Shown here one piece after another: positions 1 to 12,109 of a DNA stretch of 12,109 bases (positions are counted from its first letter, which is position 1; each line of letters begins with the position of its first letter). The notes beneath the pieces are model-generated. The model saw nothing but the letters and a program-made list of their open reading frames with translations, did no database searches and was not told where the DNA came from. The position numbers and the translations under genes are program-made. The stretch comes from a virus (Duplodnaviria; Heunggongvirae; Uroviricota; Caudoviricetes), in IMG/VR virus record IMGVR_UViG_2531839476_000007, positions 1 to 12,109 of that record, one strand, 5' to 3'.

Positions 1-149
1 ACAAAATCTATAACCATGAATTAATTCATTCACAAGACCTGATCATGCTGCGGTCTGGTGAATTTTCTAAATCGCCTATTCGAGTTTCATTTTGCCCGTT
101 CTGTGGTGAAAGTCTGAAAACGTGGGAAGCGGAGGCAACCAGTGAATAA
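1..149 (+). CDS. 3' end of an upstream gene, 5'-truncated by the window edge; hypothetical protein with a C-terminal CxxC pair
   Basis: Frame 3 is open from the window start to TAA at 147-149 (…MLRSGEFSKSPIRVSFCPFCGESLKTWEAEATSE). Its stop overlaps the GTG start of the next ORF (GTGAATAA), typical of coupled phage genes. Not in the ORF track because it is short and partial. Confidence 0.3.
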   Translation, partial: KIYNHELIHSQDLIMLRSGEFSKSPIRVSFCPFCGESLKTWEAEATSE

Positions 150-786
150 CCGCTTTTACATGATGTGCTTGCGTGAAACTGTGGGTAATAACGCCTCATT
201 CCATTGCCATAACGGCAATGGTTACAGTTCTGATATCGATCGCGCTCATGTTTACACGCTGGAAGAAGCCCAAAAAGCCTGGAATTGTGGACGAGATATC
301 GATCAGCCTGTTTGCGCTGATAGCGTGGATGCAATGGCTGTGTGGCACGTTGATTGCCAGTACATCCCCACAGAAAGCCTGATTGAGTCAGATTGCACTG
401 CGTATGTGGCCTACAAAAAAGGTAGCTGGAACGGCAACGATGTTTACTGGCTTCAACACGGTGGATTGCCAACAGATGACTTCAGTAAAGCGACCATCTT
501 TAGCGTCGCCAACAAAAACGAACCAGGAATAGTTTGGTTGCCATTTTCCATTGCTGATGCAGCAAAGCGTCGGACGTTCAATATCAATAACTTTAACCGC
601 AGAACAATGGTTCAGGGCGCAGGTTTGGTCATGCCTGACTGGTTGAAAGAGCAGAACAGAAGAAAGAAGTCGCGAAGCGGGAAGGTGCGTTGGAATTGTC
701 CGCATTGCGGAAAAATAACCTGGCAGTACAGCCCATATGATTTTGAAGGCTGTAGTGATTACAACTGTGAAGGATGGCGAGAATGA
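142..786 (+). CDS. hypothetical phage protein, 214 aa, with a C-terminal Cys cluster (CPHCGK…CSDYNCEGW)
   Basis: ORF-track ORF. GTG start at 142 is preceded by GGAGG at 131-135 (6-nt spacing); ATGs at 160/163 are alternatives. No family recognised. Confidence 0.55.
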   Translation: MNNRFYMMCLRETVGNNASFHCHNGNGYSSDIDRAHVYTLEEAQKAWNCGRDIDQPVCADSVDAMAVWHVDCQYIPTESLIESDCTAYVAYKKGSWNGNDVYWLQHGGLPTDDFSKATIFSVANKNEPGIVWLPFSIADAAKRRTFNINNFNRRTMVQGAGLVMPDWLKEQNRRKKSRSGKVRWNCPHCGKITWQYSPYDFEGCSDYNCEGWRE

Positions 787-1529
787 CAATTGACTATCAG
801 GCACTGCGTGAGGCGGCAGAGCGTGCAATTCCGGCAATGGAACACCTGTTAATGTTGCCAGTTGATGATGATTTGTTAACTGAACAGGAACTTAAGGATT
901 ACGGTGTGGATATTGATGCGCTCAACGCCTTCAAATTTCTGACCGGACCAGAAACCGTGCTGGCACTACTGGATGAACGGGAAAGAAACCAGCAATACAT
1001 CAAACGCCGCGACCAGGAGAACGAGGATATTGCGCTAACGGTTGGGAGGCTGCTAATCGAAAACGGCCAGCTTGTTGCCGATACGCTACGCCACTTAGCT
1101 GATAACGAAATCGACTCTGATTATTTTGCTATCACCTCAACGAATGAGAACGGTACTGAAATTGATCATGAGATGGCTATTACCGATTACGCACTGCAAG
1201 CTGCCGGAACTGTAGACGAATTGGTTGCAGCGCTGGAATCCGCAGAGAAGCGCATAGCAGAACTGGAAGCACGGGAAATAAAACCAGCCAAAGGCGAAGT
1301 TCTTGTCGTTGTATCTGGTTTTACTGGTTGCGGAAAAAGCGCCATTGCCGGGGAAATAGAAATCGCGATGAAGGCTATTGGTGTACCGGTTAAGTGGACT
1401 AATGGCGATGCAGAAAAGCGCATGACTGGCGCTGACTGGCTGACAGCGATTGAGATGTACAAACCAACTGTGCGCATCGCGGAAGTTAATGTGCCACGCG
1501 CCGCTGGCATTCGCATCAAAGGAGAGTGA
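783..1529 (+). CDS. hypothetical acidic/coiled-coil phage protein (about 248 aa) with a Walker-A-like GFTGCGKS motif near the C-terminus
   Basis: ORF-track ORF 774..1529; start is ATG 774 or ATG 783 (MTIDYQALREAAERA…). Overlaps the stop of the preceding ORF. P-loop-like motif is encoded around 1314-1340. Confidence 0.6.
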   Translation: MTIDYQALREAAERAIPAMEHLLMLPVDDDLLTEQELKDYGVDIDALNAFKFLTGPETVLALLDERERNQQYIKRRDQENEDIALTVGRLLIENGQLVADTLRHLADNEIDSDYFAITSTNENGTEIDHEMAITDYALQAAGTVDELVAALESAEKRIAELEAREIKPAKGEVLVVVSGFTGCGKSAIAGEIEIAMKAIGVPVKWTNGDAEKRMTGADWLTAIEMYKPTVRIAEVNVPRAAGIRIKGE

Positions 1530-1534
1530 GTGAT

Positions 1535-1732
1535 ATGGATAAAAACACCACTGCTTACTGGAATCTGTCACTTGATACCGAATGCCCCAAATGTGGTCAC
1601 AATTTCGATCTGCTCTGTGATGCTGATTTCTGGGAGTTTTCTGGAGCAAAACAGGCATGTGAAGAAATAAAAGGTTACGAAACATGCTGCCCAGAATGTA
1701 ACCATGAATTTAAAACAGATTTTGTGTATTGA
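1535..1732 (+). CDS. small Cys-rich zinc-ribbon-like protein, about 65 aa (CPKCGH … CCPECNH)
   Basis: ORF-track ORF 1526..1732. ATG at 1535 sits 8 nt after GGAGAG (1521-1526); the GTG at 1526 overlaps the previous stop. Two CxxC pairs about 40 residues apart. Confidence 0.55.
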   Translation: MDKNTTAYWNLSLDTECPKCGHNFDLLCDADFWEFSGAKQACEEIKGYETCCPECNHEFKTDFVY

Positions 1733-1742
1733 GGCATAACGA

Positions 1743-2933
1743 ATGACCACTTTTACTAAAGAACAATTAATAGAGATAATTAAGCGCAATATAACGGTTA
1801 TGGATCGTTATCCTGATTTAGTAACTGCACAAATGGATCTGGAAGTATACAAAATCGCGCTGGCATCACTGGAAGCAGAACCAGTTGCTTATATTTTCAA
1901 ACATCCGGCCGGGAAATTATTCTGGGCTTTAACGGATGAAAGCAATAAAGAGCAACCGGACGTTATTCCTGTTTATGCTGACTCACCTGCGCCGGTTGTG
2001 CCGGATGAAATAGACGTAAACGATGTACCAAGGGCGGTGACATATTTCAAGACACACAGAGATTGTTACGCAGATGGCTGGAACGCCTGCCGCGCCGCCA
2101 TGCTTCAGTCCGGAAACTTTCGGGAAAATAAGAATTCGTCAACCAATAATTTTCGGGAAATCGCGGAAACGTCAACCAACTATCCGGTAATTCCTAGTGA
2201 GGTGTTGTCCGCAATCCTGAAGGTTGCCAAGATTCGTGCCGATTTCGATGATTTTGACGGTGACAGGCGAGGTATCGGTGATTGTCTGGATGAGGCTGAG
2301 CAAGAGCTTATCGTTACCATTAACAAATATGCCAGTCAGTTGGCAGCAGAACCGATAGCGACTAATGACGTTCGAGAGCAAACAGCCGTTCCGCCAGTTC
2401 CTGTAATACAGGCTGATGTCGCGCAGGCAATTGAAAAACTCAAACGGAAATTAGTGGAATGCAATCGCTATAACTACTGCGCAGATGCAGTTAAGGGCGT
2501 TGAGTATGCCTGCCACGCTGCCATGCTTCAGGGTAGCCAACCTGTAAGCCAAACTTACAAGTTTCCAGTTAATACACCTTGCCAGGATGCGCCAGCCCAT
2601 ATCTGGCTGCAAACAGCTGGAGTATGGCCAGAAGATGGCGAGTTAAGCGAATTAACGTGGTGCAGCCACAATCAGCACCATGATGACACGCTATATGTTC
2701 GAGCTGACTTGGTAAATGGCAATTCTCAGGTAACTCCGGATGGTTGGATAAGCTGTAGTGAGCGAATGCCCGCTCAAGATGATTGGATTTTAATTTATTC
2801 AAAGCACGGTGAGTATATGGCAGGACAGGTGCAAGGGGAATACGTGGAGTTGAGCGACGGCACTTTATCCTGGTTAGGGAACGCCTTGTTCTGGATGCTG
2901 CTACCAGAACCTCCCCAGGAGGCAGGTCAATGA
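1743..2933 (+). CDS. DUF551-type phage protein, 396 aa, with internal duplications
   Basis: ATG 1743 preceded by GAGG at 1731-1734. The C-terminus (WISCSERMPAQDDWILIY…FWMLLPEPPQ) resembles the DUF551 pattern recalled from enterobacterial prophage proteins (W…ER(L/M)P…W…(M/L)P(L/E)PP). Contains a 33-bp tandem duplication and a repeated AAMLQ motif. Confidence 0.7.
   Translation: MTTFTKEQLIEIIKRNITVMDRYPDLVTAQMDLEVYKIALASLEAEPVAYIFKHPAGKLFWALTDESNKEQPDVIPVYADSPAPVVPDEIDVNDVPRAVTYFKTHRDCYADGWNACRAAMLQSGNFRENKNSSTNNFREIAETSTNYPVIPSEVLSAILKVAKIRADFDDFDGDRRGIGDCLDEAEQELIVTINKYASQLAAEPIATNDVREQTAVPPVPVIQADVAQAIEKLKRKLVECNRYNYCADAVKGVEYACHAAMLQGSQPVSQTYKFPVNTPCQDAPAHIWLQTAGVWPEDGELSELTWCSHNQHHDDTLYVRADLVNGNSQVTPDGWISCSERMPAQDDWILIYSKHGEYMAGQVQGEYVELSDGTLSWLGNALFWMLLPEPPQEAGQ
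2118..2183 (+). repeat. in-frame imperfect 2 x 33-bp tandem duplication inside the DUF551 gene
   Basis: Unit 1 (2118-2150) tttcgggaaaataagaattcgtcaaccaataat and unit 2 (2151-2183) tttcgggaaatcgcggaaacgtcaaccaactat share 24/33 nt, including exact 10-mer and 9-mer blocks. They encode FRENKNSSTNN / FREIAETSTNY. Confidence 0.8.
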
Positions 2934-3013
2934 GCTGGCCTGAAGCATTCGCAACGGTAGGAATTGTGATGGCGGCAGCACTGGGTTTGTATTCAATTTG
3001 TCGCTGGTGGTAA
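2930..3013 (+). CDS. unlisted small hydrophobic peptide, 27 aa (MSWPEAFATVGIVMAAALGLYSICRWW)
   Basis: Perfect Shine-Dalgarno AGGAGG at 2917-2922, 7 nt before ATG 2930. The ATG overlaps the upstream TGA (ATGA) and the stop TAA 3011-3013 lies 2 nt before the next ATG. Predicted single transmembrane helix. Below the track's 60-aa cutoff. Confidence 0.45.
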   Translation: MSWPEAFATVGIVMAAALGLYSICRWW

Positions 3014-3015
3014 CG

Positions 3016-3249
3016 ATGAGGAAATTAACTTTTGTAGTCGAATTTGAGGATGGTAAAGAGCCACCTGTTAGCGCCAATCTTGATGTTGCTGGTGGAAGGC
3101 TTGTTTCGGTTCTATTTGGTGACTACCGAGATGACTTCTTCCAACCAGAAGAAGTTGATGTAGTGCGAGAGGCATTAAACGAGTTAAGTGTTGACAACGA
3201 TGATGCTCATGCGGAAATCATCCAAAAAATGGAACTGCTAACTCACTAA
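3016..3249 (+). CDS. hypothetical acidic protein, 77 aa
   Basis: ORF-track ORF 2998..3249 (TTG start); ATG 3016 (MRKLTFVVEF…) is more plausible and sits directly after the small ORF. No family recognised. Confidence 0.5.
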   Translation: MRKLTFVVEFEDGKEPPVSANLDVAGGRLVSVLFGDYRDDFFQPEEVDVVREALNELSVDNDDAHAEIIQKMELLTH

Positions 3250-3297
3250 ATTATCAATTATGGTGCTATAACCTACGACACCGAGAGAAAATTTATA

Positions 3298-3420
3298 ATG
3301 TCAAAAGTAAATGTTTTGATTTTTTCAGCAATTGTTGGCTTTGGTTTTACTGCCGGAGTGCAGATTTATATTACGTGGGAAAAAATCATCAACTACGCAT
3401 GGAGTTGTTTTATTAAGTGA
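3298..3420 (+). CDS. unlisted small membrane protein, 40 aa (MSKVNVLIFSAIVGFGFTAGVQIYITWEKIINYAWSCFIK)
   Basis: ATG 3298 to TGA 3418-3420. The stop overlaps the GAGG RBS of the next gene. An extended -10-like TGCTATAAC lies at 3264-3272 upstream. Hydrophobic N-terminal helix. RBS is weak (GAGAGA). Confidence 0.35.
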   Translation: MSKVNVLIFSAIVGFGFTAGVQIYITWEKIINYAWSCFIK

Positions 3421-3427
3421 GGTAAGT

Positions 3428-3721
3428 ATGTGGAGAGGTAATAATCATGGCAAAAGCCAGATGATACTTACCGAATATAAGCTAGACCACAAAACCAATA
3501 AATCACGCTCAGTATATTTGCTCCGGCACAATAGTCGCGTAAGAAATACCGTGCTGGAACAAAATCTGACAGTTGAAATGGATAATTACGGGGGATTCAA
3601 GCCAACAATTTCACTTGATGATTTTCCTCGTGGTTTAAGCGAAAGAGAAGCAATGCTGAAATTAGCAGAATGGCTACAAAGATTAAGCATTGCTATTGAA
3701 GATAACTGGTCTGAACCTTAA
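3428..3721 (+). CDS. hypothetical protein, about 97 aa
   Basis: In frame with track ORF 3332..3721. ATG 3428 is preceded by GAGG (3419-3422, 5-nt spacing). The track's upstream start at 3332 has no RBS and lies inside the small ORF. Confidence 0.5.
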   Translation: MWRGNNHGKSQMILTEYKLDHKTNKSRSVYLLRHNSRVRNTVLEQNLTVEMDNYGGFKPTISLDDFPRGLSEREAMLKLAEWLQRLSIAIEDNWSEP

Positions 3722-3727
3722 ATTTAT

Positions 3728-4102
3728 ATGATGACACTAAAACATTTTCTTGACCGCCCATTATGGGCGGCAGCCGCAGGCTATGACTTTAATTATATGG
3801 ATTGCATGTCTTATACCGCCAATGCATACGACCATTCCTTCAGTCTGCTGTTTAATTCTTTAAGAATATTGCCGCAAACAGAAGTTGGAGAGCTTCATTT
3901 ATGGCTATTGGGCTTTATCGCGGCTGTCGTTGGTATTGCTGTATGGCCTTTTATTTTCTGGCTGGTGGCTGTTGTAGTGTGGGTTAAGTGCAAGACATAC
4001 CGGAAAAAGTATTTCTTAGGTGATGGAATGACTGATATTGCCAAAATGAACATTGAAGAATGGACTAAGGAATGTGAAAAGAAATGGCGCAAAAAGAAAT
4101 GA
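3728..4102 (+). CDS. hypothetical membrane protein, 124 aa
   Basis: ORF-track ORF. Long hydrophobic segment LWLLGFIAAVVGIAVWPFIFWLVAVVVWV followed by a basic C-terminus (…KKWRKKK). The 3' end overlaps the next gene. Confidence 0.55.
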   Translation: MMTLKHFLDRPLWAAAAGYDFNYMDCMSYTANAYDHSFSLLFNSLRILPQTEVGELHLWLLGFIAAVVGIAVWPFIFWLVAVVVWVKCKTYRKKYFLGDGMTDIAKMNIEEWTKECEKKWRKKK

Positions 4103-4734
4103 CCAGAATCACTGAAGAGCGCATATCAGAGATTATTTCCCGTATCGAAATGTATGGTCACGGTGCTGGATATACGGCAGATGAAGTATTGGAAATAGCC
4201 CAGCAGATGCTGGCCTTGAGACAAAAAGAGCAACATGAAAGTAATACGTGTAGATTGAATTTTGAGCATTGGCTGGAACAGCAACGCGGGAAAATCGATG
4301 TGGACTGTGGTTGTGTGTCCACTGAAACATTCATGCACTGGCTGCGGGTAGCTTACGAGGCTGGCAACTATCCGGATATTCCGGATAGTTCGGTGCCAGC
4401 ACCAGGAAAGGGCGTCACCGGTGAACGTATCCGAATTAAGCCGCATGTTTATCGCGAACTGGTTAACCGTCTCCACGATACAGCGATCAAGTGTGCTGGC
4501 ACCCAGCAATTACGAGAAAGAATTAGCCGTGTTTTGGGCGACGTTATTACACCAGATCATCATAAACAAGCCGAGAAAAGTGGCCTGGAAAGGTGTCGCC
4601 TTGAGGCGGCATTAAACATTAAGCCGGGGCATACGCTTGGCATTATTGATGCACTATTGGTTCATAAGATGGCCAGGGCTTTATTGCCGCTGGTGGCTGA
4701 AAAGCATGAGGTGGACCATGCCAACGAAAGCTGA
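4084..4734 (+). CDS. hypothetical soluble phage protein, 216 aa
   Basis: ORF-track ORF. Start ATG 4084 overlaps the previous gene (alternative ATG 4099). No family recognised. Confidence 0.55.
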   Translation: MAQKEMTRITEERISEIISRIEMYGHGAGYTADEVLEIAQQMLALRQKEQHESNTCRLNFEHWLEQQRGKIDVDCGCVSTETFMHWLRVAYEAGNYPDIPDSSVPAPGKGVTGERIRIKPHVYRELVNRLHDTAIKCAGTQQLRERISRVLGDVITPDHHKQAEKSGLERCRLEAALNIKPGHTLGIIDALLVHKMARALLPLVAEKHEVDHANES

Positions 4735-5002
4735 ATTACAGGTGCGCGTAGATGAGCTTGAAAAAGAGAACGCGAGCCTCAAAAAAATGCTGTCGCGGGC
4801 GGAAAGGGAATTATCAGGCAAATTATTGCCAGAAGAACTGCCACCAGCAGATATACCTGATCGAGTGTCCTGGTGGATGAAGTATTTCCGTGCACCGTGG
4901 GAGGCGTTTTGGTGCTACGACCATCGCAGATGGTGTGATGAACTTGATAGCAATTTTCCCTACTTTGCGGAAGGGAACACCTGCCCTCAATGCAGGGGAT
5001 AG
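4718..5002 (+). CDS. hypothetical protein, about 94 aa, coiled-coil N-terminus and C-terminal CPQCRG
   Basis: In frame with track ORF 4637..5002. ATG 4718 is preceded by GAGGTGG (4708-4714) and overlaps the end of the previous gene. Last gene of the left-hand + strand block. Confidence 0.5.
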   Translation: MPTKAELQVRVDELEKENASLKKMLSRAERELSGKLLPEELPPADIPDRVSWWMKYFRAPWEAFWCYDHRRWCDELDSNFPYFAEGNTCPQCRG

Positions 5003-5337
5003 CATTTGACGAAATCGATCACCCTATCCTGAACTTCAGAAAGAAGGTCTTTTTCACGCGCCAGGACGTCAGGATATTGACGTTCTGGCCTTACCAGATG
5101 CCGGAGCTTCCCATTAAGCAGAATGGCCTCAGAAAACACTTTTACGCTGTGCTTTATCCCCTCTGTTTCACTTTTCAGCGTCAAAATAAAGCGCAATTGC
5201 TTATTAGCCTGATTCGGATTCAATACACGAATTTGCAGTTCGTCTATGCTGTTCCGCAATGGGATTGATGCCACCACACTGGTGCAGTCTCTGATTGTCT
5301 GAATTGAACGGCTAACATTGAGAACGTTATTGTGCAT
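4987..5337 (-). CDS. doubtful antisense ORF, 116 aa, in the gap between the left gene block and hot
   Basis: Only long ORF covering the 367-bp gap 5003-5369, but there is no convincing RBS (AGGAG lies about 14 nt upstream of the ATG) and no recognisable family. A + strand ORF 4990..5268 competes for the same DNA. Confidence 0.2.
   Translation of the reverse strand: MHNNVLNVSRSIQTIRDCTSVVASIPLRNSIDELQIRVLNPNQANKQLRFILTLKSETEGIKHSVKVFSEAILLNGKLRHLVRPERQYPDVLAREKDLLSEVQDRVIDFVKCYPLH
5060..5089. repeat. 12-bp-stem inverted repeat (hairpin) centred on GACGTC
   Basis: gccaggacgtca (5060-5071) / ggatat loop / tgacgttctggc (5078-5089); 11 Watson-Crick pairs plus one G-T. Lies 58 nt after the stop at 5002. 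No adjacent U-tract on either strand. Confidence 0.5.
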
Positions 5338-5369
5338 GTGCCTGATCCACTAACTCCTGGAGGTTTCTT

Positions 5370-5621
5370 GTGTCAGATCGAAATATAGCAGCTAAAAGCC
5401 AGGAAGAGCGAGACAAGGTGAACGTAGACCTTGCCGCCAGCGGCGTTGCTTACAAAGAACGGCTGAATATACCTGTGATTGCAGAGCAGGTGGCCCGTGA
5501 GCAACCGGAAAACCTGCGCGCCTATTTCATGGAACGGCTACGGCACTACCGGCAGTTAAGCCTCCAGTTGCCAAAAGGGAGCGATCCGGTGTATCAGAAC
5601 GAGGATGCACCAAAAAAATAA
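5370..5621 (+). CDS. hot: Hot, homolog of the DNA polymerase III theta subunit (HolE), 83 aa
   Basis: GTG 5370 is preceded by GGAGG (5359-5363). The core [43 protein letters not shown] matches my recollection of E. coli theta ([43 protein letters not shown]). Position before humD fits the P1 gene order. Confidence 0.8.
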
Positions 5622-5680
5622 CGGCAAGATGGGGGAGAAATGTGATTAGCCCCCAGCGTGGCGCGCCTACAAACCCCGCT

Positions 5681-5726
5681 TTCACAAACTATGCCTTTTC
5701 AATGTATACTGTATGAATAAACAGTA
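5681..5726 (+). promoter_or_regulatory. SOS-type promoter with a LexA box overlapping the -10, upstream of humD
   Basis: -35 TTCACA (5681-5686), -10 TATACT (5705-5710), and TACTGTATGAATAAACAGTA (5707-5726), which fits the LexA consensus TACTG-N10-CAGTA. RBS GAGG 5732-5735 and ATG 5745 follow. Confidence 0.8.
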
Positions 5727-5744
5727 TCATTGAGGTAAAACGCT

Positions 5745-6134
5745 ATGGGCTTCCCTTCTCCTGCGGCGGATTATGTTGAAAGCCGAATTTCTCTTGATCA
5801 GCAGATAATTAGACATCCTTCAGCGACCTACTTCATGCGGGCAGCTGATAGCCATCACCGTGAGGGAATATTGCAGGGTGCTTTGCTGGTGGTTGATTCC
5901 TCGCTTACTCCGGTTGATGGTTCTCTGCTTGTGTGCGCTATGGAGGGTGAATATCGCATAAAGAGATACAGGAAGTATCCGCGCCAGCACCTGGAGGACT
6001 TAAGCACCGGGAAGAAAGAGGCGTTACCAGTAGATGACGATGGATACACGGGCAGTAATGCTGTTTTTGGTGTGATCACTCATGTCATCAATGATGCCCG
6101 AAGTGGGGAATTTGATGATTGTCCGGTTATTTAA
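5745..6134 (+). CDS. humD: HumD, a UmuD'-like S24-family protein lacking the UmuD N-terminal pro-segment, 129 aa
   Basis: Begins MGFPSPAADYVE…, aligning with UmuD residues just after its Cys24-Gly25 self-cleavage site (…CG/FPSPAADYVE). Ser in ADSH and Lys in YRIKRYRK align with the UmuD Ser/Lys dyad. An in-frame TAA at 5736-5738 rules out a longer N-terminus. Confidence 0.85.
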   Translation: MGFPSPAADYVESRISLDQQIIRHPSATYFMRAADSHHREGILQGALLVVDSSLTPVDGSLLVCAMEGEYRIKRYRKYPRQHLEDLSTGKKEALPVDDDGYTGSNAVFGVITHVINDARSGEFDDCPVI

Positions 6135-6169
6135 GCTGCAAAGTGCTGGTGCTTTATGCCTGTGAAGTT

Positions 6170-6198
6170 TATAATTGTGTACACATAACGAGTACACG
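6170..6198 (+). promoter_or_regulatory. phd-doc promoter -10 and two palindromic operator half-site pairs
   Basis: Perfect -10 TATAAT (6170-6175), then perfect 10-bp palindrome TGTGTACACA (6176-6185) and imperfect palindrome CGAGTACACG (6189-6198, 8/10), centres 13 bp apart. This is the arrangement expected for Phd autorepression. Confidence 0.6.
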
Positions 6199-6206
6199 AG
6201 GTGTTT

Positions 6207-6428
6207 ATGCAATCCATTAACTTCCGTACCGCGCGTGGCAACCTTTCTGAAGTGCTCAACAATGTTGAAGCCGGGGAAGAGGTTGAAATCACCCGCAGAG
6301 GCCGTGAGCCAGCAGTAATTGTCAGCAAGGCTACTTTCGAAGCCTACAAAAAAGCGGCGCTGGATGCTGAATTTGCATCCCTGTTTGACACCCTGGACTC
6401 CACCAACAAGGAACTGGTTAACCGATAA
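6207..6428 (+). CDS. phd: Phd antitoxin (prevent host death), 73 aa
   Basis: [73 protein letters not shown] matches my recollection of P1 Phd. Stop TAA overlaps the doc ATG (TAATG at 6426-6430). Confidence 0.92.
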
Positions 6429-6808
6429 TGAGACATATATCACCGGAAGAACTTGTTGCGCTTCATGATGCGAATATAAGCCGCTACGGCGGCCTGCCGG
6501 GAATGTCTGATCCGGGTAGGGCAGAGGCCATTATCGGGAGAGTTCAGGCCAGAGTTGCCTACGAAGAGATCACCGACCTTTTCGAAGTCTCCGCCACCTA
6601 CCTGGTGGCTACAGCGAGAGGGCATATATTCAATGATGCCAATAAGCGTACCGCGCTAAACAGTGCGCTGCTATTTCTACGCCGTAACGGGGTGCAGGTA
6701 TTTGATTCACCTGAACTGGCAGACCTTACCGTAGGCGCTGCGACTGGCGAGATATCTGTATCTTCTGTCGCCGACACGTTACGTAGATTGTATGGTTCTG
6801 CGGAGTAG
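6428..6808 (+). CDS. doc: Doc toxin (death on curing), Fic-fold kinase, 126 aa
   Basis: [39 protein letters not shown]… matches recalled P1 Doc and contains the Fic-type motif HIFNDANKR. Translationally coupled to phd. Confidence 0.92.
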
Positions 6809-6812
6809 ATTA

Positions 6813-6992
6813 ATGGCACGTAAATACAACAAGTTGTCCCGTGAAGCGTTAAAGATGCTTCTTGATGGCGTGAGCCGCCGCAAGGTAAAGCAATACCTGG
6901 TTGGTAAGCAAATTGGAGTCAGGACCGCTATTGCTGTGTTATGCCGTCAGGAAATGGTTGTGCTTAAACAGAGAATGCCGGGCAGCAGATAA
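6813..6992 (+). CDS. pdcA: PdcA-like small basic protein (post-doc), about 59 aa
   Basis: ATG 6813 preceded by GGAG (6802-6805); in frame with track ORF 6792..6992. Named from its position directly after doc in the P1 gene order, not from sequence recognition. Confidence 0.45.
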   Translation: MARKYNKLSREALKMLLDGVSRRKVKQYLVGKQIGVRTAIAVLCRQEMVVLKQRMPGSR

Positions 6993-7019
6993 AGCCCAAT
7001 CAGTGATTAAAGGTGTGAT

Positions 7020-8063
7020 GTGAAAGCCATAATTACTCCCTTTGTACAGAAAGAGCTTGGCCTCGCCACGTTCAAAGTGGATCAGGAGGTCAGAAAGCTG
7101 GTGGAGGCTGGCCGTAAATTTATTATGGAGCCGGTGCCGCGTGAGTTAATCGAGCACATGGAAGACGGCCTCGTTGTTACCGAGCAAACCATGGCAACAA
7201 ATGAGGCGTTGCAGCCGTTTTTTAACAGCGATGAACTGTTTCGCCGTATTGGTGGAATTGACTCGCTGGTGGCGTGGTTGCGTAGGAAAGAGGGTCAATG
7301 CCAGGCCGCAGATCGTAGTTGGTGTGACAACCATATTGTCCACGCTGAACGAGACAATAGCGCGGTGTTGTTGTGCTGGCATCACGATAACCATTACCGG
7401 ATGCGTGGTTTTAATGAGCTGAAAGAAACGCTGCACAATAATCGCGTTAACTGGATACTGGATGTCGCCCGTCAGGAAATGGGCCTTTCAAATAGCCATG
7501 ATTTAAGTATTCAGGAGCTGTGCTGGTGGGCTTTCATGCGCAACATGATGCACCTGATGCCGGAAGAAGTCTGCCGCATATCAATAAATAAGATGAAGGC
7601 TACTCCGCAGGATAGCGGACCTCTGAAAGAGGCGGATATTCGCCCGTATGACGATCGCGCTACAGCATATGTTCAGATGATGGAAGAACGCGCCGCGCCG
7701 ATGCGTGCAAAAGTATGCCCTGTGGATGTTGACTCCGACCCAGGTATGGCGCATTTCAAAATACCAAAACTTCAATCGCTAAAATTGCCCGAGTACATGG
7801 ACTTTGTGGCTTCCCGTCCATGCTGTGGCTGTGGAGCTGCGGGAGCTGGCGCTCACATTACGCCTTATATCGTTCGTCATAGTCGATTATGCGCGCATGA
7901 CATTTATGCTATTCCTCTGTGCCAGTCATGCCAGCGTGATATTGAGCGTGACCGCGATAATTGGGAGAAGACGCACGGTAGGCTGGCGATGCATCAACGA
8001 TTGTTCTTTGATTACGCGCTTGGAGTCGGCGCTATCACAAGTCATTCGTCGAGTGTTAGATAA
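7020..8063 (+). CDS. pdcB: PdcB-like protein, 347 aa, with Cys/His-rich HNH-like motifs
   Basis: GTG 7020 preceded by AGGTG. Contains CWHHDNH and a C-terminal cluster PCCGCG…[29 protein letters not shown] resembling the HNH pattern CxxC…H…N…LCxxC. Name is by position in the P1 order. Confidence 0.65.
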
Positions 8064-8064
8064 A

Positions 8065-8107
8065 ATTGCTCTAATGTATTGCTATTTCTTTAATCGAGGG
8101 TATTATA
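8065..8107 (+). promoter_or_regulatory. C1-repressor operator-like site overlapping the -35 of a putative lpa promoter
   Basis: ATTGCTCTAATGTATTG (8065-8081) matches the recalled asymmetric C1 operator consensus ATTGCTCTAATAAATTT at 14/17, first 11 positions exact. Candidate -35 TTGCTA (8079-8084) and -10 TATTAT (8101-8106) / ATTATA (8102-8107). Confidence 0.55.
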
Positions 8108-8115
8108 TTCGACGT

Positions 8116-8139
8116 TGATTAGTTGACATGGGCTAATCA
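8116..8139. repeat. 7-bp perfect inverted repeat TGATTAG-N10-CTAATCA in the lpa leader
   Basis: TGATTAG (8116-8122) and CTAATCA (8133-8139) flank a spacer containing TTGACA (8123-8128). Sits between the putative -10 and the lpa RBS AGGTGA (8142-8147). Confidence 0.5.
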
Positions 8140-8151
8140 GTAGGTGACAGG

Positions 8152-8604
8152 ATGTTACTTAACTGGCAGGGACGCCACTTCATGGAAATAAATCACTCAC
8201 GAATAACATCGTACGAGATTGCGGATTACATGATCCGCACTAAATCTCTTCTATCAGCGAAAGAACTCGCAGCAATTCTTGAAAAGGAATACCCGCATCT
8301 GGATGTCGATAAGCGCGATGTTTATCTGCGCTTAAAGGCTATCGCTGTGTCTAAGTATTCGTCTGTTTTGATTGATGACAGTACACGCCCACGTAGATTT
8401 CAGATCCACTCTCTGAATCCTGAATTCTTTCGCCGCAGCCGCGCTCCGCGCCGGTTTGATGAAAAACTCCAGAACGAACTCTATATGACGCAGGACGAAA
8501 AGGAACGCCGGGAGCACCAGCCTTGGGTGATGGCGCGTCAACTTTTCAATAAGGTGGTCCGTCAGCACCGTCATTACGGTAATGCCACATCCGCACGTAT
8601 CTGA
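8152..8604 (+). CDS. lpa: Lpa-like late promoter activator (P1 gene 10), 150 aa
   Basis: ORF-track ORF; ATG 8152 with RBS AGGTGA (alternative ATG 8182, MEINHSRI…). Assigned from its position immediately upstream of pacA and the C1-operator-like site upstream. I do not recall the Lpa sequence itself. Confidence 0.6.
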   Translation: MLLNWQGRHFMEINHSRITSYEIADYMIRTKSLLSAKELAAILEKEYPHLDVDKRDVYLRLKAIAVSKYSSVLIDDSTRPRRFQIHSLNPEFFRRSRAPRRFDEKLQNELYMTQDEKERREHQPWVMARQLFNKVVRQHRHYGNATSARI

Positions 8605-8614
8605 TTGATTGCTT

Positions 8615-8633
8615 GCCCGTTCCGGGCCTTTTG
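8615..8633 (+). terminator. weak intrinsic terminator-like hairpin between lpa and pacA
   Basis: GCCCG-TTC-CGGGC (8615-8627) followed by CTTTTG (8628-8633). Short 5-bp GC stem and only four U's, so at best a partial terminator. Confidence 0.3.
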
Positions 8634-8690
8634 ACATGTGACTTTCGTTACCCTCGCGTCAAAAAGAGTTTTATACGAAAGGAAGCATAA

Positions 8691-9884
8691 GTGACCTGGG
8701 ACGATCACAAGAAGAATTTTGCTCGCCTGGCGCGAGATGGTGGTTACACCATCGCACAGTATGCCGCCGAGTTTAATCTTAACCCTAATACCGCACGTCG
8801 TTATCTCCGTGCCTTCAAAGAAGACACCAGGACAGCGGACAGCCGCAAGCCAAATAAGCCAGTCAGGAAGCCTCTAAAAAGCATGATCATTGATCACGCT
8901 AATGATCAACGTGCATGTGATCACATTGTGGCTGAAATGGCTGAAAAACAAAGAGTTAATGCTGTTGTCAGTGCCGCAGTCGAGAACGCTAAGCGCCAAA
9001 ATAAGCGCATAAATGATCGTTCTGATGATCATGACGTGATCACCCGCGCCCACCGTACCTTACGTAATCGCCTGGAACGCGACACCCTGGATGATGATGG
9101 TGAACGCTTTGAATTCGAAGCTGGCGATTACCTGATAGATAACGTTGAAGCGCGGAAGGCCGCGCGCGCTATGTTGCGTCGGTCCGGGGCCGATGTTCTG
9201 GAAACCACTCTTCTGGAAAAGTCTCTTTCTCATCTCCTTATGCTGGAGAACGCCAGGGATACGTGTATTCGCCTGGTGCAGGAAATGCGCGATCAGCAAA
9301 AAGACGATGATGAAGGTACTCCGCCTGAATACCGTATCGCGAGCATGCTAAACAGCTGTTCCGCGCAGATAAGCAGCCTGATCAACACCATTTACAGCAT
9401 CCGGAATAACTATCGAAAAGAAAGCCGGGAGGCGGAAAAGCACGCTTTATCTATGGGGCAAGCTGGCATTGTTAAGCTGGCATACGAACGAAAGCGTGAA
9501 AATAACTGGTCAGTGCTGGAAGCGGCTGAATTCATCGAGGCGCATGGAGGAAAAGTGCCTCCCCTGATGCTGGAGCAAATCAAAGCCGATCTGCGTGCTC
9601 CTAAGACCAATACCGATGATGAGGAAAACCAAACAGCATCTGGCGCTCCATCACTTGAAGATCTGGATAAAATCGCGCGAGAACGGGCCGCCAGCCGCCG
9701 CGCTGATGCCGCATTGTGGATTGAGCATCGTAGAGAAGAAATTGCCGATATCGTCGATACAGGTGGTTATGGTGATGTCGATGCGGAAGGCATATCAAAC
9801 GAAGCATGGCTTGAACAGGATCTGGACGAAGACGAGGAGGAAGACGAAGAAGTTACCCGCAAACTGTACGGGGATGATGATTAA
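8691..9884 (+). CDS. pacA: PacA, small terminase / pac-site recognition subunit, 397 aa
   Basis: GTG 8691 with RBS AAGGAAG (8680-8686). Begins [28 protein letters not shown]… and contains the pac hexamer clusters within its 5' third, as described for P1 pacA. Stop overlaps the pacB ATG (TAATG at 9882-9886). Confidence 0.88.
8884..9042 (+). other. pac packaging site: 4 + 3 TGATC(A/G) hexamers, each carrying a GATC Dam site
   Basis: Left cluster TGATCA at 8884-8889, 8891-8896, 8903-8908, 8918-8923. Right cluster TGATCG 9014-9019 and TGATCA 9026-9031, 9037-9042. Span of about 160 bp inside pacA matches the recalled architecture of the P1 pac site. Confidence 0.8.
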
Positions 9885-11368
9885 TGGCCAGAAGTTGCGT
9901 AACGGACCCACGTTGGCGCGAGCTTGTGGCGCTATATCGTTATGACTGGATTGCGGCCGCTGATGTGTTGTTTGGGAAGACACCAACCTGGCAGCAGGAT
10001 GAGATCATTGAGTCCACGCAGCAGGACGGCAGTTGGACAAGTGTGACCTCCGGCCATGGTACTGGTAAATCGGATATGACGAGTATCATTGCAATACTCT
10101 TCATCATGTTTTTCCCCGGCGCTCGCGTCATTCTGGTCGCTAACAAAAGACAGCAAGTCCTTGATGGTATTTTCAAATACATAAAGAGCAATTGGGCTAC
10201 TGCTGTTAGCAGATTCCCGTGGTTGTCGAAGTATTTCATTCTTACAGAAACGTCTTTTTTTGAGGTGACTGGCAAGGGTGTTTGGACAATATTGATAAAG
10301 TCCTGTCGCCCCGGGAATGAGGAGGCGTTGGCTGGTGAACACGCCGATCATCTCTTGTATATCATCGACGAAGCGTCGGGTGTGAGTGATAAAGCATTCA
10401 GTGTGATAACAGGTGCGCTGACCGGTAAGGATAACCGTATTCTGCTTCTTTCCCAGCCTACGCGACCTTCAGGCTATTTCTACGATTCACACCACAGACT
10501 AGCTATTCGCCCGGGAAATCCTGATGGATTGTTTACTGCGATAATACTGAATAGTGAAGAATCTCCGCTTGTAGATGCAAAATTTATACGAGCAAAACTT
10601 GCGGAGTATGGCGGTCGTGATAACCCCATGTACATGATCAAAGTACGTGGTGAATTTCCCAAATCTCAAGATGGCTTTCTTCTTGGTCGTGATGAGGTTG
10701 AGCGGGCGACGCGGCGAAAGGTCAAGATTGCCAAAGGATGGGGCTGGGTTGCATGTGTTGACGTTGCTGGTGGCACAGGACGAGATAAGTCCGTTATTAA
10801 TATCATGATGGTGTCCGGCCAGCGAAATAAACGCCGTGTAATCAACTATCGTATGCTGGAATACACAGACGTTACAGAAACGCAGTTAGCCGCCAAGATT
10901 TTCGCAGAATGTAACCCAGAACGGTTCCCGAACATAACCATAGCTATTGATGGCGATGGCTTGGGGAAATCGACGGCTGATCTAATGTACGAACGCTATG
11001 GCATTACCGTCCAGCGTATCCGCTGGGGTAAAAAGATGCACAGCCGTGAAGATAAAAGCCTTTATTTCGATATGCGCGCTTTCGCGAATATTCAGGCGGC
11101 AGAAGCTGTAAAATCAGGGCGTATGAGGCTTGATAAGGGGGCTGCGACTATAGAGGAAGCATCAAAGATACCGGTAGGGATAAATTCCGCAGGTCAATGG
11201 AAGGTGATGTCAAAGGAAGATATGAAGAAAAAACTCAACCTGCACTCACCGGACCATTGGGATACATATTGTTTCGCTATGTTGGCGAACTATGTTCCCC
11301 AGGATGAAGTGCTTAGCGTCGAAGACGAAGCGCAGGTTGATGAAGCTCTGGCATGGCTTAATGAATAA
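9884..11368 (+). CDS. pacB: PacB, large terminase (ATPase/nuclease) subunit, 494 aa
   Basis: ATG 9884 coupled to the pacA stop. Walker A GHGTGKS and Walker-B-like [11 protein letters not shown] are present. Size and position match P1 pacB. Confidence 0.88.
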
Positions 11369-11418
11369 CTCATTAACCATGCCGGATAGAAACTATTGCG
11401 CGCTTTCGGGGTTGTCGT

Positions 11419-12109
11419 TTACTGGCTGCCCCTTCTTAGTTTTACGGCTGCGCGTAACTGATGCGGCTGATTTGACCTTTTTCTCTTCGCGAGTGATGGC
11501 AATTGTTTTTTTACATTTTCAATATCTGCCAGGCGATATATTTTTGCCTGCGGCCAGCGGTCGCAGATGATCGGTTCTATAGAGTCATAAAGGCTAAATT
11601 TTGCTTTCTCGAATTCACCGTTGATGATGATTCCATCACGGAGAGTTTCATCGCAGATAAACACACCACACAGCGGCACATGGTAACTAACTGATTTACC
11701 ATCATTGTAGTTAGGGCTACTGGAAATGTAATGGACGCGCAGCATTGTTTCGCTAAAGCCGTGTACACGCATACGGAATTTTTCATCCTCCGGGTACTGC
11801 TTCATTAGCTCTTTTGTTGCTTCCAGGTTCTCTATGTATTTCGCACTGTGCTCATTGATCCCCGCGCTTTTCTGGATGCGAATGTCCTTATCAATCAGAT
11901 GAATAATGCGGCCAGCGGTCATGTTGACGCTGTTCACAGCTTCTGTCTGATAAGTTGTAACCTTACGCACACCGCGAAGGATGTTAGGCACTGGATATAA
12001 AATAGTCTTTGGGATATTGAGGTCTGGGTACTGTTCCAGTTCTCGCGCCATTAAAGTCCATTTATCAATTTCAGCCTGAATGCTGTCCGTTTCTTTGAAC
12101 GGCAGAACG
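11419..12109 (-). CDS. c1: c1 immunity repressor, 3' portion only; the 5' end lies beyond the window
   Basis: The - strand frame is open from the window edge (…VLPFKETDSIQAEIDKWTLMARELEQ…) to the stop at 11419-11421, so the track's 210-aa ORF is an N-terminally truncated view. Convergent with pacB, as in the P1 map. Sequence recognition is partial. Confidence 0.65.
   Translation of the reverse strand, partial: VLPFKETDSIQAEIDKWTLMARELEQYPDLNIPKTILYPVPNILRGVRKVTTYQTEAVNSVNMTAGRIIHLIDKDIRIQKSAGINEHSAKYIENLEATKELMKQYPEDEKFRMRVHGFSETMLRVHYISSSPNYNDGKSVSYHVPLCGVFICDETLRDGIIINGEFEKAKFSLYDSIEPIICDRWPQAKIYRLADIENVKKQLPSLAKRKRSNQPHQLRAAVKLRRGSQ

Follow-up and report, generated by a model that had tools for sequence, protein, structure and literature searches.

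Small single-pass membrane proteins that bind larger membrane proteins form a class reviewed in PMC12648545 and PMC11323111. Such proteins have fewer than 50 amino acids (aa), one transmembrane (TM) helix with a small-xxx-small face and a gene placed in an operon, and they are often missed by annotation; the same appears to hold for the product of the 40-codon open reading frame (ORF) described here, ORF40 (positions 3298 to 3420, plus strand; MSKVNVLIFSAIVGFGFTAGVQIYITWEKIINYAWSCFIK), although its likeness to the characterised small membrane proteins is one of class only, no sequence homology to them having been found. ORF40 lies in a stretch of 12,109 nucleotides (hereafter the window) that comprises positions 1 to 12,109 of the IMG/VR virus record IMGVR_UViG_2531839476_000007 (Caudoviricetes). 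The P1 genes humD, phd, doc, pdcA, pdcB, lpa and pacAB are found in the right half of the window, and the 1.25-kb stretch around ORF40 is 97-99.8% identical to some 200 plasmids of 90-100 kb from E. coli, Salmonella and Klebsiella and to the phages SJ46 and vB_EcoM-813R1 (genus Punavirus); the window is therefore the accessory, variable part of a P1-like phage-plasmid of the SJ46 type. Among the closest described systems is phrog_5525, a family that resides in the early accessory arrays of lambdoid prophages, among replication genes, Ead/Ea22, DUF551 and the nin/Q region. We consider it probable that ORF40 is a bona fide gene for a single-helix membrane peptide of this family, brought by mosaic exchange into the variable region of SJ46-type phage-plasmids, where it would have no promoter of its own and would be co-transcribed within a polycistronic plus-strand block.

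The 40-position profile of phrog_5525 (PHROGs v4, annotated 'unknown function') matches residues 1-40 of ORF40 on its positions 1-40 with an expectation value (E) of 1.2e-24, and it matches the consensus of the main family, MSKC[DN]ALLYAMV[VI]GFGLAAGIRVYIAWESLINLAWxAIxG, at E=7.6e-30. An exhaustive phmmer scan of 1.84 billion representatives returned calls of 58-60 aa at 51% identity, in which an internal Met yields a 40-aa peptide, and a profile search gathered 72 clusters, mostly of 40-41 aa and 42-63% identical to ORF40, whose members scored E values of 4e-22 to 1e-17 and come from Klebsiella, Citrobacter, Pantoea and E. coli chromosomes. A tblastn search of the main-family consensus against all phage records reached the SJ46/813R1 locus at 2e-7 to 3e-8. 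Family members are 40-41 residues long, or up to 46 in a Pantoea-type branch, and ORF40, with 40 residues, shares with phrog_5525 both length and the motif GFG-x2-AG / YI-x-W / IN-x-AW. Eleven columns are invariant in an alignment of six sequences (A4: K3, G14, F15, G16, A19, G20, I25, W27, I31, N32 and W35), and ORF40 has them all. When 41 sequences are aligned (A5), K3 and G14 are invariant and a further set is conserved at 90% or more (M1, L7, Y9, M11, F15, G16, A19, G20, Y24, I25, W27, L30, I31 and W35); ORF40 matches 12 of these 16 positions, Y24 among them, and differs at Y9 (F), M11 (A), L30 (I) and I31 (N32 at that column). On these comparisons ORF40 is a divergent (~50% identity) and relocated member of an already catalogued, uncharacterised family.

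The gene call is carried by these deeper homologues. The frame is intact in all 75 further loci for which DNA was at hand, and it is exactly 40 codons long in 62 of them. Within the main family nucleotide diversity (pi) at the three codon positions is 0.137/0.052/0.236, with 18/11/30 of 39 columns variable (p = 8e-5), and the ratio of non-synonymous to synonymous substitution rates (dN/dS) is 0.20 in frame against 0.92 and 2.57 off-frame. The P1-type clade compared with the main family gives the same in-frame value, 0.20, against 0.72 and 1.60, and the window compared with an Escherichia albertii locus of P1-type context (L194, 73% aa identity) gives 0.30 against 1.46 and 1.62. Because deep homologues keep the frame intact under in-frame purifying selection, ORF40 is regarded as a real gene, and the 40 codons, as judged from the aligned sequences, are protein-coding and under purifying selection. 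A preliminary description of this stretch, made from its letters alone, had proposed a small membrane ORF of 40 aa behind a 48-bp gap, with a hydrophobic helix and a stop codon overlapping the ribosome-binding site of the next gene, and had pointed to conservation of the frame as the comparative check; all of these elements lie where it placed them, and the 75 intact loci, the in-frame dN/dS and the profile match bear out the conservation.

Several observations made in the window itself weigh against this gene call. The best 19-residue Kyte-Doolittle (KD) window of ORF40 scores 1.83 (LIFSAIVGFGFTAGVQIYI), and a window just as hydrophobic turned up in 12% of stop-free shuffles of the T-rich sequence, as well as in six of the 46 random small ORFs of the window; the NCBI annotation pipeline PGAP leaves ORF40 unannotated in the RefSeq plasmids. 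A closed ORF of at least 40 codons with an ATG start arose in about 2% of shuffles of the 178-nt interval. Single features thus carry small statistical weight locally, only the ORF length being somewhat unusual, and the reality of ORF40 rests on the comparative data rather than on local statistics. These weak local figures, the missing PGAP call and the uninformative dN/dS of the shallow clade are what would speak for a spurious frame, that is, for a non-coding interval of 178 bp (3250-3427) with a frame that is open by chance in T-rich DNA; homologues of some 50% identity retain length and motif under strong in-frame purifying selection, which leaves this reading barely credible, and we regard it as effectively refuted already. 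One phage record does annotate the peptide (URC10368.1, phage vB_EcoM-813R1), and a literature search found no mention of its peptide strings. Two other ways of using the interval were considered and rejected. A structured RNA in 3250-3430 was discarded, folding being no better than that of shuffles on the two strands (z = +0.37 and -0.41) and no Rfam family being matched there; so was an N-terminal extension of the following 97-aa gene from a TTG at 3332, since that frame has a dN/dS of 1.44 with stop variants and the homology with the phage RCS47 starts at about 3422. Elsewhere in the window, the minus strand of 5339-5423 has a sub-threshold Rfam match to the eukaryotic mir-67 (25.3 bits against a gathering score of 53, E=0.051), which we regard as chance.

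Variation among the closest relatives is less favourable to the gene. We aligned 98 full-length homologous P1-type copies, representing 53 distinct sequences from genomes, plasmids, IMG/VR and metagenomes. Of the 98 copies, 94 keep an intact frame; of the remainder, one has a frameshift, one has ATG changed to CTG and two are extended by a stop-to-Trp change. An IS1B element sits inside ORF40 of plasmid pAVS0973-B (L013, NZ_CP124473.1), at about window position 3368, a natural knockout whose insertion accounts for a chimeric 57-aa protein (P0006). The most divergent type (L009, 84% nucleotide identity) carries a 9-bp in-frame insertion and keeps the stop codon and an AGGA Shine-Dalgarno (SD) sequence. 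Three points here count against a functional gene: disruption per codon, with four of 98 copies plus the IS1 insertion and a frameshifted variant, exceeds that of the neighbouring genes; dN/dS within the clade, 0.57-0.73, lies in the range of the five wrong frames (0.39-1.44); and pi by codon position is flat (0.030/0.035/0.044 over the 98 copies, pi about 4%), near the 0.049 of the adjoining gap. The flanking 77-aa and 97-aa genes have dN/dS of 0.06 and 0.13 in the same clade, and the neighbouring genes display the classic codon-position pattern (0.025/0.002/0.082 and 0.016/0.017/0.071). The within-clade dN/dS, the codon-position pi, stop-avoidance and the hydrophobicity nulls are all underpowered or uninformative, and the flat pattern reflects low power and probably also a weaker constraint in the P1-type lineage.

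The same figures are the natural support for the idea that the P1-type lineage carries ORF40 as a neutral or decaying relic, kept as a coupling 'spacer ORF' that aids expression of the 97-aa gene: flat diversity, a ratio well above that of its neighbours, more frequent disruption, a tolerated IS1 insertion and an SD weaker than the family norm would all fit, as would the constant presence, in distant relatives, of some ORF close upstream of the 97-aa gene. We nevertheless find this reading unlikely. Even within the P1-type context the comparison with L194 retains a dN/dS of 0.30 against about 1.5 off-frame, ORF40 keeps all 11 invariant positions of A4 and 12 of the 16 conserved ones of A5, substitutions in the TM core of the P1-type copies are conservative and bring in no charged residue, and in RCS47 the 97-aa gene has its own GGAG SD without ORF40. 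What the variation does establish is that ORF40 is dispensable, because IS1-interrupted and frameshifted variants exist and P1 phages of the RCS47 type carry the 97-aa and 124-aa genes but no ORF40. The homology breakpoint of those phages, at about 3422, marks the left boundary of the shared module. In Citrobacter, Winslowiella and Symbiopectobacterium, where the 97-aa gene has distant homologues, no ORF40-like ORF precedes them; as these homologues and RCS47 both lack it, the notion of ORF40 as a conserved partner of the 97-aa gene was rejected. As a gene of phrog_5525, ORF40 would accordingly encode a dispensable accessory modulator. A separate observation concerns the segment as a whole: between the window (3250-3420) and L194, an E. 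albertii-type plasmid (2952-3123), gap plus ORF40 differ at a proportion of 0.34 of synonymous sites (pS) and 0.12 of non-synonymous sites (pN), and pS in the flanking 77-aa and 97-aa genes is far lower, 0.10-0.14, which suggests a local mosaic patch or a faster evolution of this segment.

ORF40 is preceded by an untranslated spacer of 48 nt (3250-3297), which begins directly after the stop codon of the 77-aa gene (3247-3249). It is the largest gap between plus-strand ORFs of the left block, the others measuring 2-10 bp, so that its earlier designation as the only real intergenic space there holds. The preliminary description had also seen in it an extended -10-like element. The sequence in question, TGCTATAAC, is indeed present at 3264-3272, and it fits the extended -10 of sigma-70, TGnTATAAT, at 8 of 9 positions (TG plus 5/6 of the hexamer); its interpretation as a promoter did not hold. 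The hexamer reads TATAAC, with a C at the highly conserved -7 position where the extended -10 has T; no -35 hexamer was found for it and a consensus promoter scan makes no call there; and the pattern TGNTATAAY occurs once in the window against 0.81 expected by chance. Moreover, TGCTATAAC occurs in only six of the 98 copies, all near-identical to the window, the majority allele being TGCTATCAC (87 of 98) and the others being TGCCATCAT (3 of 98) and TTCTATCAC (2 of 98). TGCTATAAC is therefore a private variant, made by a C-to-A change at 3270. The gap is also the least conserved stretch of the region, with 0.54 distinct variants per site where the genes have 0.17-0.26. Given the chance frequency, the -7 C, the lack of a -35 hexamer and the six copies in 98, a promoter in the gap is not supported, and the element is a chance single-base variant that is not conserved. 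One point on the other side is that all gap variants keep GTGCYATMAY, so that on sequence a weak TGn-type promoter remains conceivable.

A rival reading treats ORF40 as a 'moron-like' unit, transcribed independently from its own extended -10 promoter, for instance in the lysogen, and working alongside the remaining small membrane ORFs in exclusion, lysis timing or abortive infection. In its favour, the block has no other sizeable intergenic space, the 8/9 fit to TGnTATAAT is real, every gap variant retains TG followed by a hexamer of 4/6-5/6, and three hydrophobic products lie within 1.17 kb. Against it stand the chance-level motif with its -7 C and without a -35 hexamer, its restriction to six copies in the least conserved stretch, the fact that the wider family has no upstream intergenic space at all, and the failure of all three membrane ORFs to match any PADLOC, Pfam or NCBIfam entry; we hold this explanation to be quite unlikely. 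The roles in exclusion, lysis timing or abortive infection that the preliminary description had suggested may exist, but nothing in these results supports them. Neither a terminator nor a canonical promoter was found near the gap, and a search with at most three mismatches to the C1 operator consensus ATTGCTCTAATAAATTT (PMC8546580) found no C1 operator in 3250-3297. Elsewhere in the window, C1-operator-like sites with three mismatches each to ATTGCTCTAATAAATTT lie at 8065-8081 (plus strand) and 10580-10596 (minus strand), where 0.06 would be expected by chance; the former is just 5' of the lpa homologue, which is consistent with P1 regulation. Two further promoter-like sites were examined and set aside: a perfect TATAAT at 3294-3299, which overlaps the start of ORF40, has neither a -35 hexamer nor TG and is absent from the gap types of L009 and L194, and a minus-strand site at 3453-3425 (9/12 match) is at chance level and inside conserved coding sequence.

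The spacer makes more sense when the wider family is considered. In lambdoid prophages the phrog_5525 gene is placed directly 3' of a DUF551 gene, with the replication genes on one side and the nin/Q region on the other, and in 70 of 75 loci a plus-strand ORF of at least 50 codons has a stop codon overlapping the small-gene start, by one base (TGATG or TAATG) in 66 and by four bases (ATGA) in 3. The family SD, GGAGG, lies inside the conserved tail of that upstream gene (...HWMPLPEPPQEVK*). ORF40 in the window lacks this overlap: where phrog_5525 loci have an overlapping stop/start and GGAGG, this copy, about 50% identical to the consensus, stands 365 bp downstream of the DUF551 slot, behind the 77-aa gene and the 48-nt spacer, with a purine-rich GAGAGAA (3283-3289, 8-10 nt 5' of its ATG) as a weaker SD. 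This SD-like tract is kept as GAAAGGAA or GATAGGAA in divergent gap types. The 3' end of the spacer (CCGATAGGAATTGAACGATG for the L009 type) bears a loose likeness to the junction seen in the family, CCGCAGGAGGTGAAGTGATG. Elsewhere in the family the tail of the upstream gene runs over the small-gene start, and the spacer is probably what decay has left of such a tail. As an observation apart, a 13-nt inverted repeat (3239-3251 and 3412-3424, TAACTCACTAAAT and ATTAAGTGAGGTA, 85% complementary) flanks spacer plus ORF40 and overlaps the two stop codons as well as the SD of the 97-aa gene; it may be due to chance.

The expression of ORF40 as a member of phrog_5525 can be pictured accordingly in conditional terms. 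In lambdoid prophages the small gene would be translated by termination-reinitiation after the DUF551-type gene, using the GGAGG in its ...PEPPQEVK* tail and the TGATG overlap. In the window the upstream coupling would have been lost and ORF40 would be translated from its stand-alone, weaker SD. At its other end the TGA of ORF40 (3418-3420) overlaps a GAGG SD (3419-3422) located 5 nt before the ATG of the 97-aa gene (3428), and this stop/SD/start junction (3418-3430) shows low diversity (pi 0.015); ribosomes ending ORF40 would thereby be delivered to the start of the 97-aa gene.

As to the product, an AlphaFold2 run with the 41-sequence alignment predicted one continuous helix over residues 3-39, with a mean predicted local distance difference test score (pLDDT) of 91.6. 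Residues 6-26 are hydrophobic (mean KD 1.82) with a low hydrophobic moment and residues 27-40 are amphipathic (hydrophobic moment 1.33), which is compatible with a putative TM segment (about 6-26) followed by an amphipathic juxtamembrane tail (27-40). The helix bears a conserved small-residue face, G14-F-G16-x-x-A19-G20, with an aromatic belt of Y24 and W27 at the end of the segment and W35 in the tail. A G14-x-G16-x-x-x-G20-type face with aromatics such as Y24, W27 and W35 is typical of TM helices that pack on other helices. The earlier call of a small membrane ORF thus agrees with the modelled single helix and with a conserved family predicted to be of membrane type. ORF40 would insert as a single-pass inner-membrane peptide, and its most likely action would be helix-helix association through the glycine face, either between copies of the peptide or with a membrane protein of the host or of a phage.

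Searches of Pfam and NCBIfam gave no meaningful match for ORF40, YnhF/CydH and DUF2109 falling far below the cut-offs, and PADLOC-DB assigned 0 families to all nine proteins of the block, the three membrane ORFs included. These results bear on a further possibility, namely that ORF40 damages membranes, as a type I toxin-like or holin-like peptide or a viroporin, and is expressed at low level for plasmid addiction or lysis. Hok, TisB and pinholin-type peptides, small and pore-forming or depolarising, are the obvious comparators. ORF40 shares with type I toxins and small holin-like peptides (Hok/Gef, TisB, pinholins) its size and a single hydrophobic helix, its glycine-zipper-like face recalls such peptides, and in Stx2 phage II a relative of the neighbouring 27-aa ORF adjoins a MokW/Gef-like gene. 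It differs from them in having no similarity to toxin or holin families in Pfam, NCBIfam or PADLOC and no Rfam match, and in showing neither a stable RNA structure or structured leader nor an antisense signal on either strand (the z scores given above). In addition, the operon setting, strong SD and translational coupling seen in the family run counter to the tight repression that is usual for type I toxins, and its early-region location is far from the lysis genes. We therefore rate a toxin or holin role as very unlikely, and retain the single-helix accessory peptide of phrog_5525 as the explanation of choice.

The left block around ORF40 is a run of small plus-strand ORFs of the lambdoid 'ea/nin' type, with Ead/Ea22, DUF551 and several PHROGs of unknown function. 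The DUF551-domain gene (1743-2933, 396 aa, Pfam DUF551 E=4.9e-9) ends in the tail ...LPEPPQEAGQ*, which contains an AGGAGG SD for the next small ORF, and its C-terminal 60 aa are near-identical to those of the DUF551 proteins that precede the main-family 40-aa gene in the lambdoid loci L150, L156, L157 and L160. The slot after DUF551, with AGGAGG and an ATGA overlap, the same as that of the lambdoid 40-aa family, is taken in the window by a hydrophobic 27-aa ORF (2930-3013, KD maximum 1.98), intact in 36 of 36 fetched copies. Its relatives occur at 58-77% identity in 88 phage records (tblastn), mostly Shiga toxin (Stx)-converting phages and usually unannotated; in Stx2 phage II the relative overlaps the stop codon of ORF c34, upstream of the MokW/Gef-like gene. 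It is followed by the 77-aa gene (3016-3249; phrog_3876, E=4e-52, function unknown), a PGAP coding sequence in L001 that is under strong purifying selection. Downstream of ORF40 come the 97-aa gene (3428-3721; phrog_1258, function unknown), found with or without ORF40, and a gene for a 124-aa protein (3728-4102; phrog_2638, function unknown) with a hydrophobic stretch of about 31 residues, KD exceeding 1.6 in windows that begin at residues 52-72 and reaching 2.6. With maxima of 1.98, 1.83 and 2.6 over 1.17 kb, the 27-aa ORF, ORF40 and the 124-aa protein agree with the three putative membrane products that the preliminary description had counted within 1.2 kb.

The DUF551 tail itself recurs well beyond these loci. 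It accompanies the small gene even at L121, where the upstream protein is not DUF551, and its DNA (CAGGAGGTGAAGTGATG) alone is present in 2,142 of 5,426 complete E. coli genomes, followed by a wide variety of genes, among them a 3'-5' exonuclease, NinX, DUF4752 and small TM ORFs. The full small gene is found in 164 of the same 5,426 genomes, and the tail thus behaves as a mosaic junction. Other small genes were seen at similar junctions. The same GGAGG…GTGATG overlap with the upstream gene is found at a 42-aa hydrophobic ORF (MFSSHGYGAAIVIFAIVCAVVGWGVIEFTLWLFSFVHISFGG; L196 666-794) and at a 25-aa Brenneria ORF of phrog_5907 (L008 2915-2992) that lies between DUF551 and a homologue of the 97-aa gene. 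On the downstream side, about 60 of the 75 main-family loci have an overlapping ORF of about 100-115 aa, starting …KSPAERKAAQRAR…, that follows the 40-aa gene (for example L122 4107-4418, L185 2131-2478 and L149 2116-2454); it has a Cys-rich C-terminus in the longer versions, belongs to no Pfam family and is absent from the window. One may speculate that the tail (…PLPEPPQE-x-x*, CAGGAGG…TGATG) is a dedicated 'docking' junction at which interchangeable tiny membrane-peptide genes, namely the 40-aa phrog_5525 gene, the 27-aa family, the 25-aa phrog_5907 ORF and the 42-aa ORF, are recombined and translationally coupled, a proposal that we put forward as tentative and, for the present, rather doubtful. 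If true, it would imply a two-part system of a soluble DUF551 protein and a swappable membrane anchor or effector peptide, and the window would carry two such peptides, one coupled and one orphaned.

Taken on its own, the gene call is sound and fairly ordinary, no new mechanism being demonstrated, and the most interesting by-product of the analysis is the recurrent DUF551-tail junction that may couple interchangeable tiny membrane-peptide genes. Nonetheless, an unannotated 178-bp 'gap' shared by hundreds of RefSeq P1-like phage-plasmids carrying antimicrobial resistance becomes a supported gene call, linked to a widespread family of small membrane proteins that has no Pfam or NCBIfam model. 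The case also illustrates that dN/dS within a shallow clade can miss real small genes that deeper homologues reveal, and the recurrent coupling to the DUF551 tail provides a handle for finding hidden small phage proteins and for probing the role of DUF551 itself.

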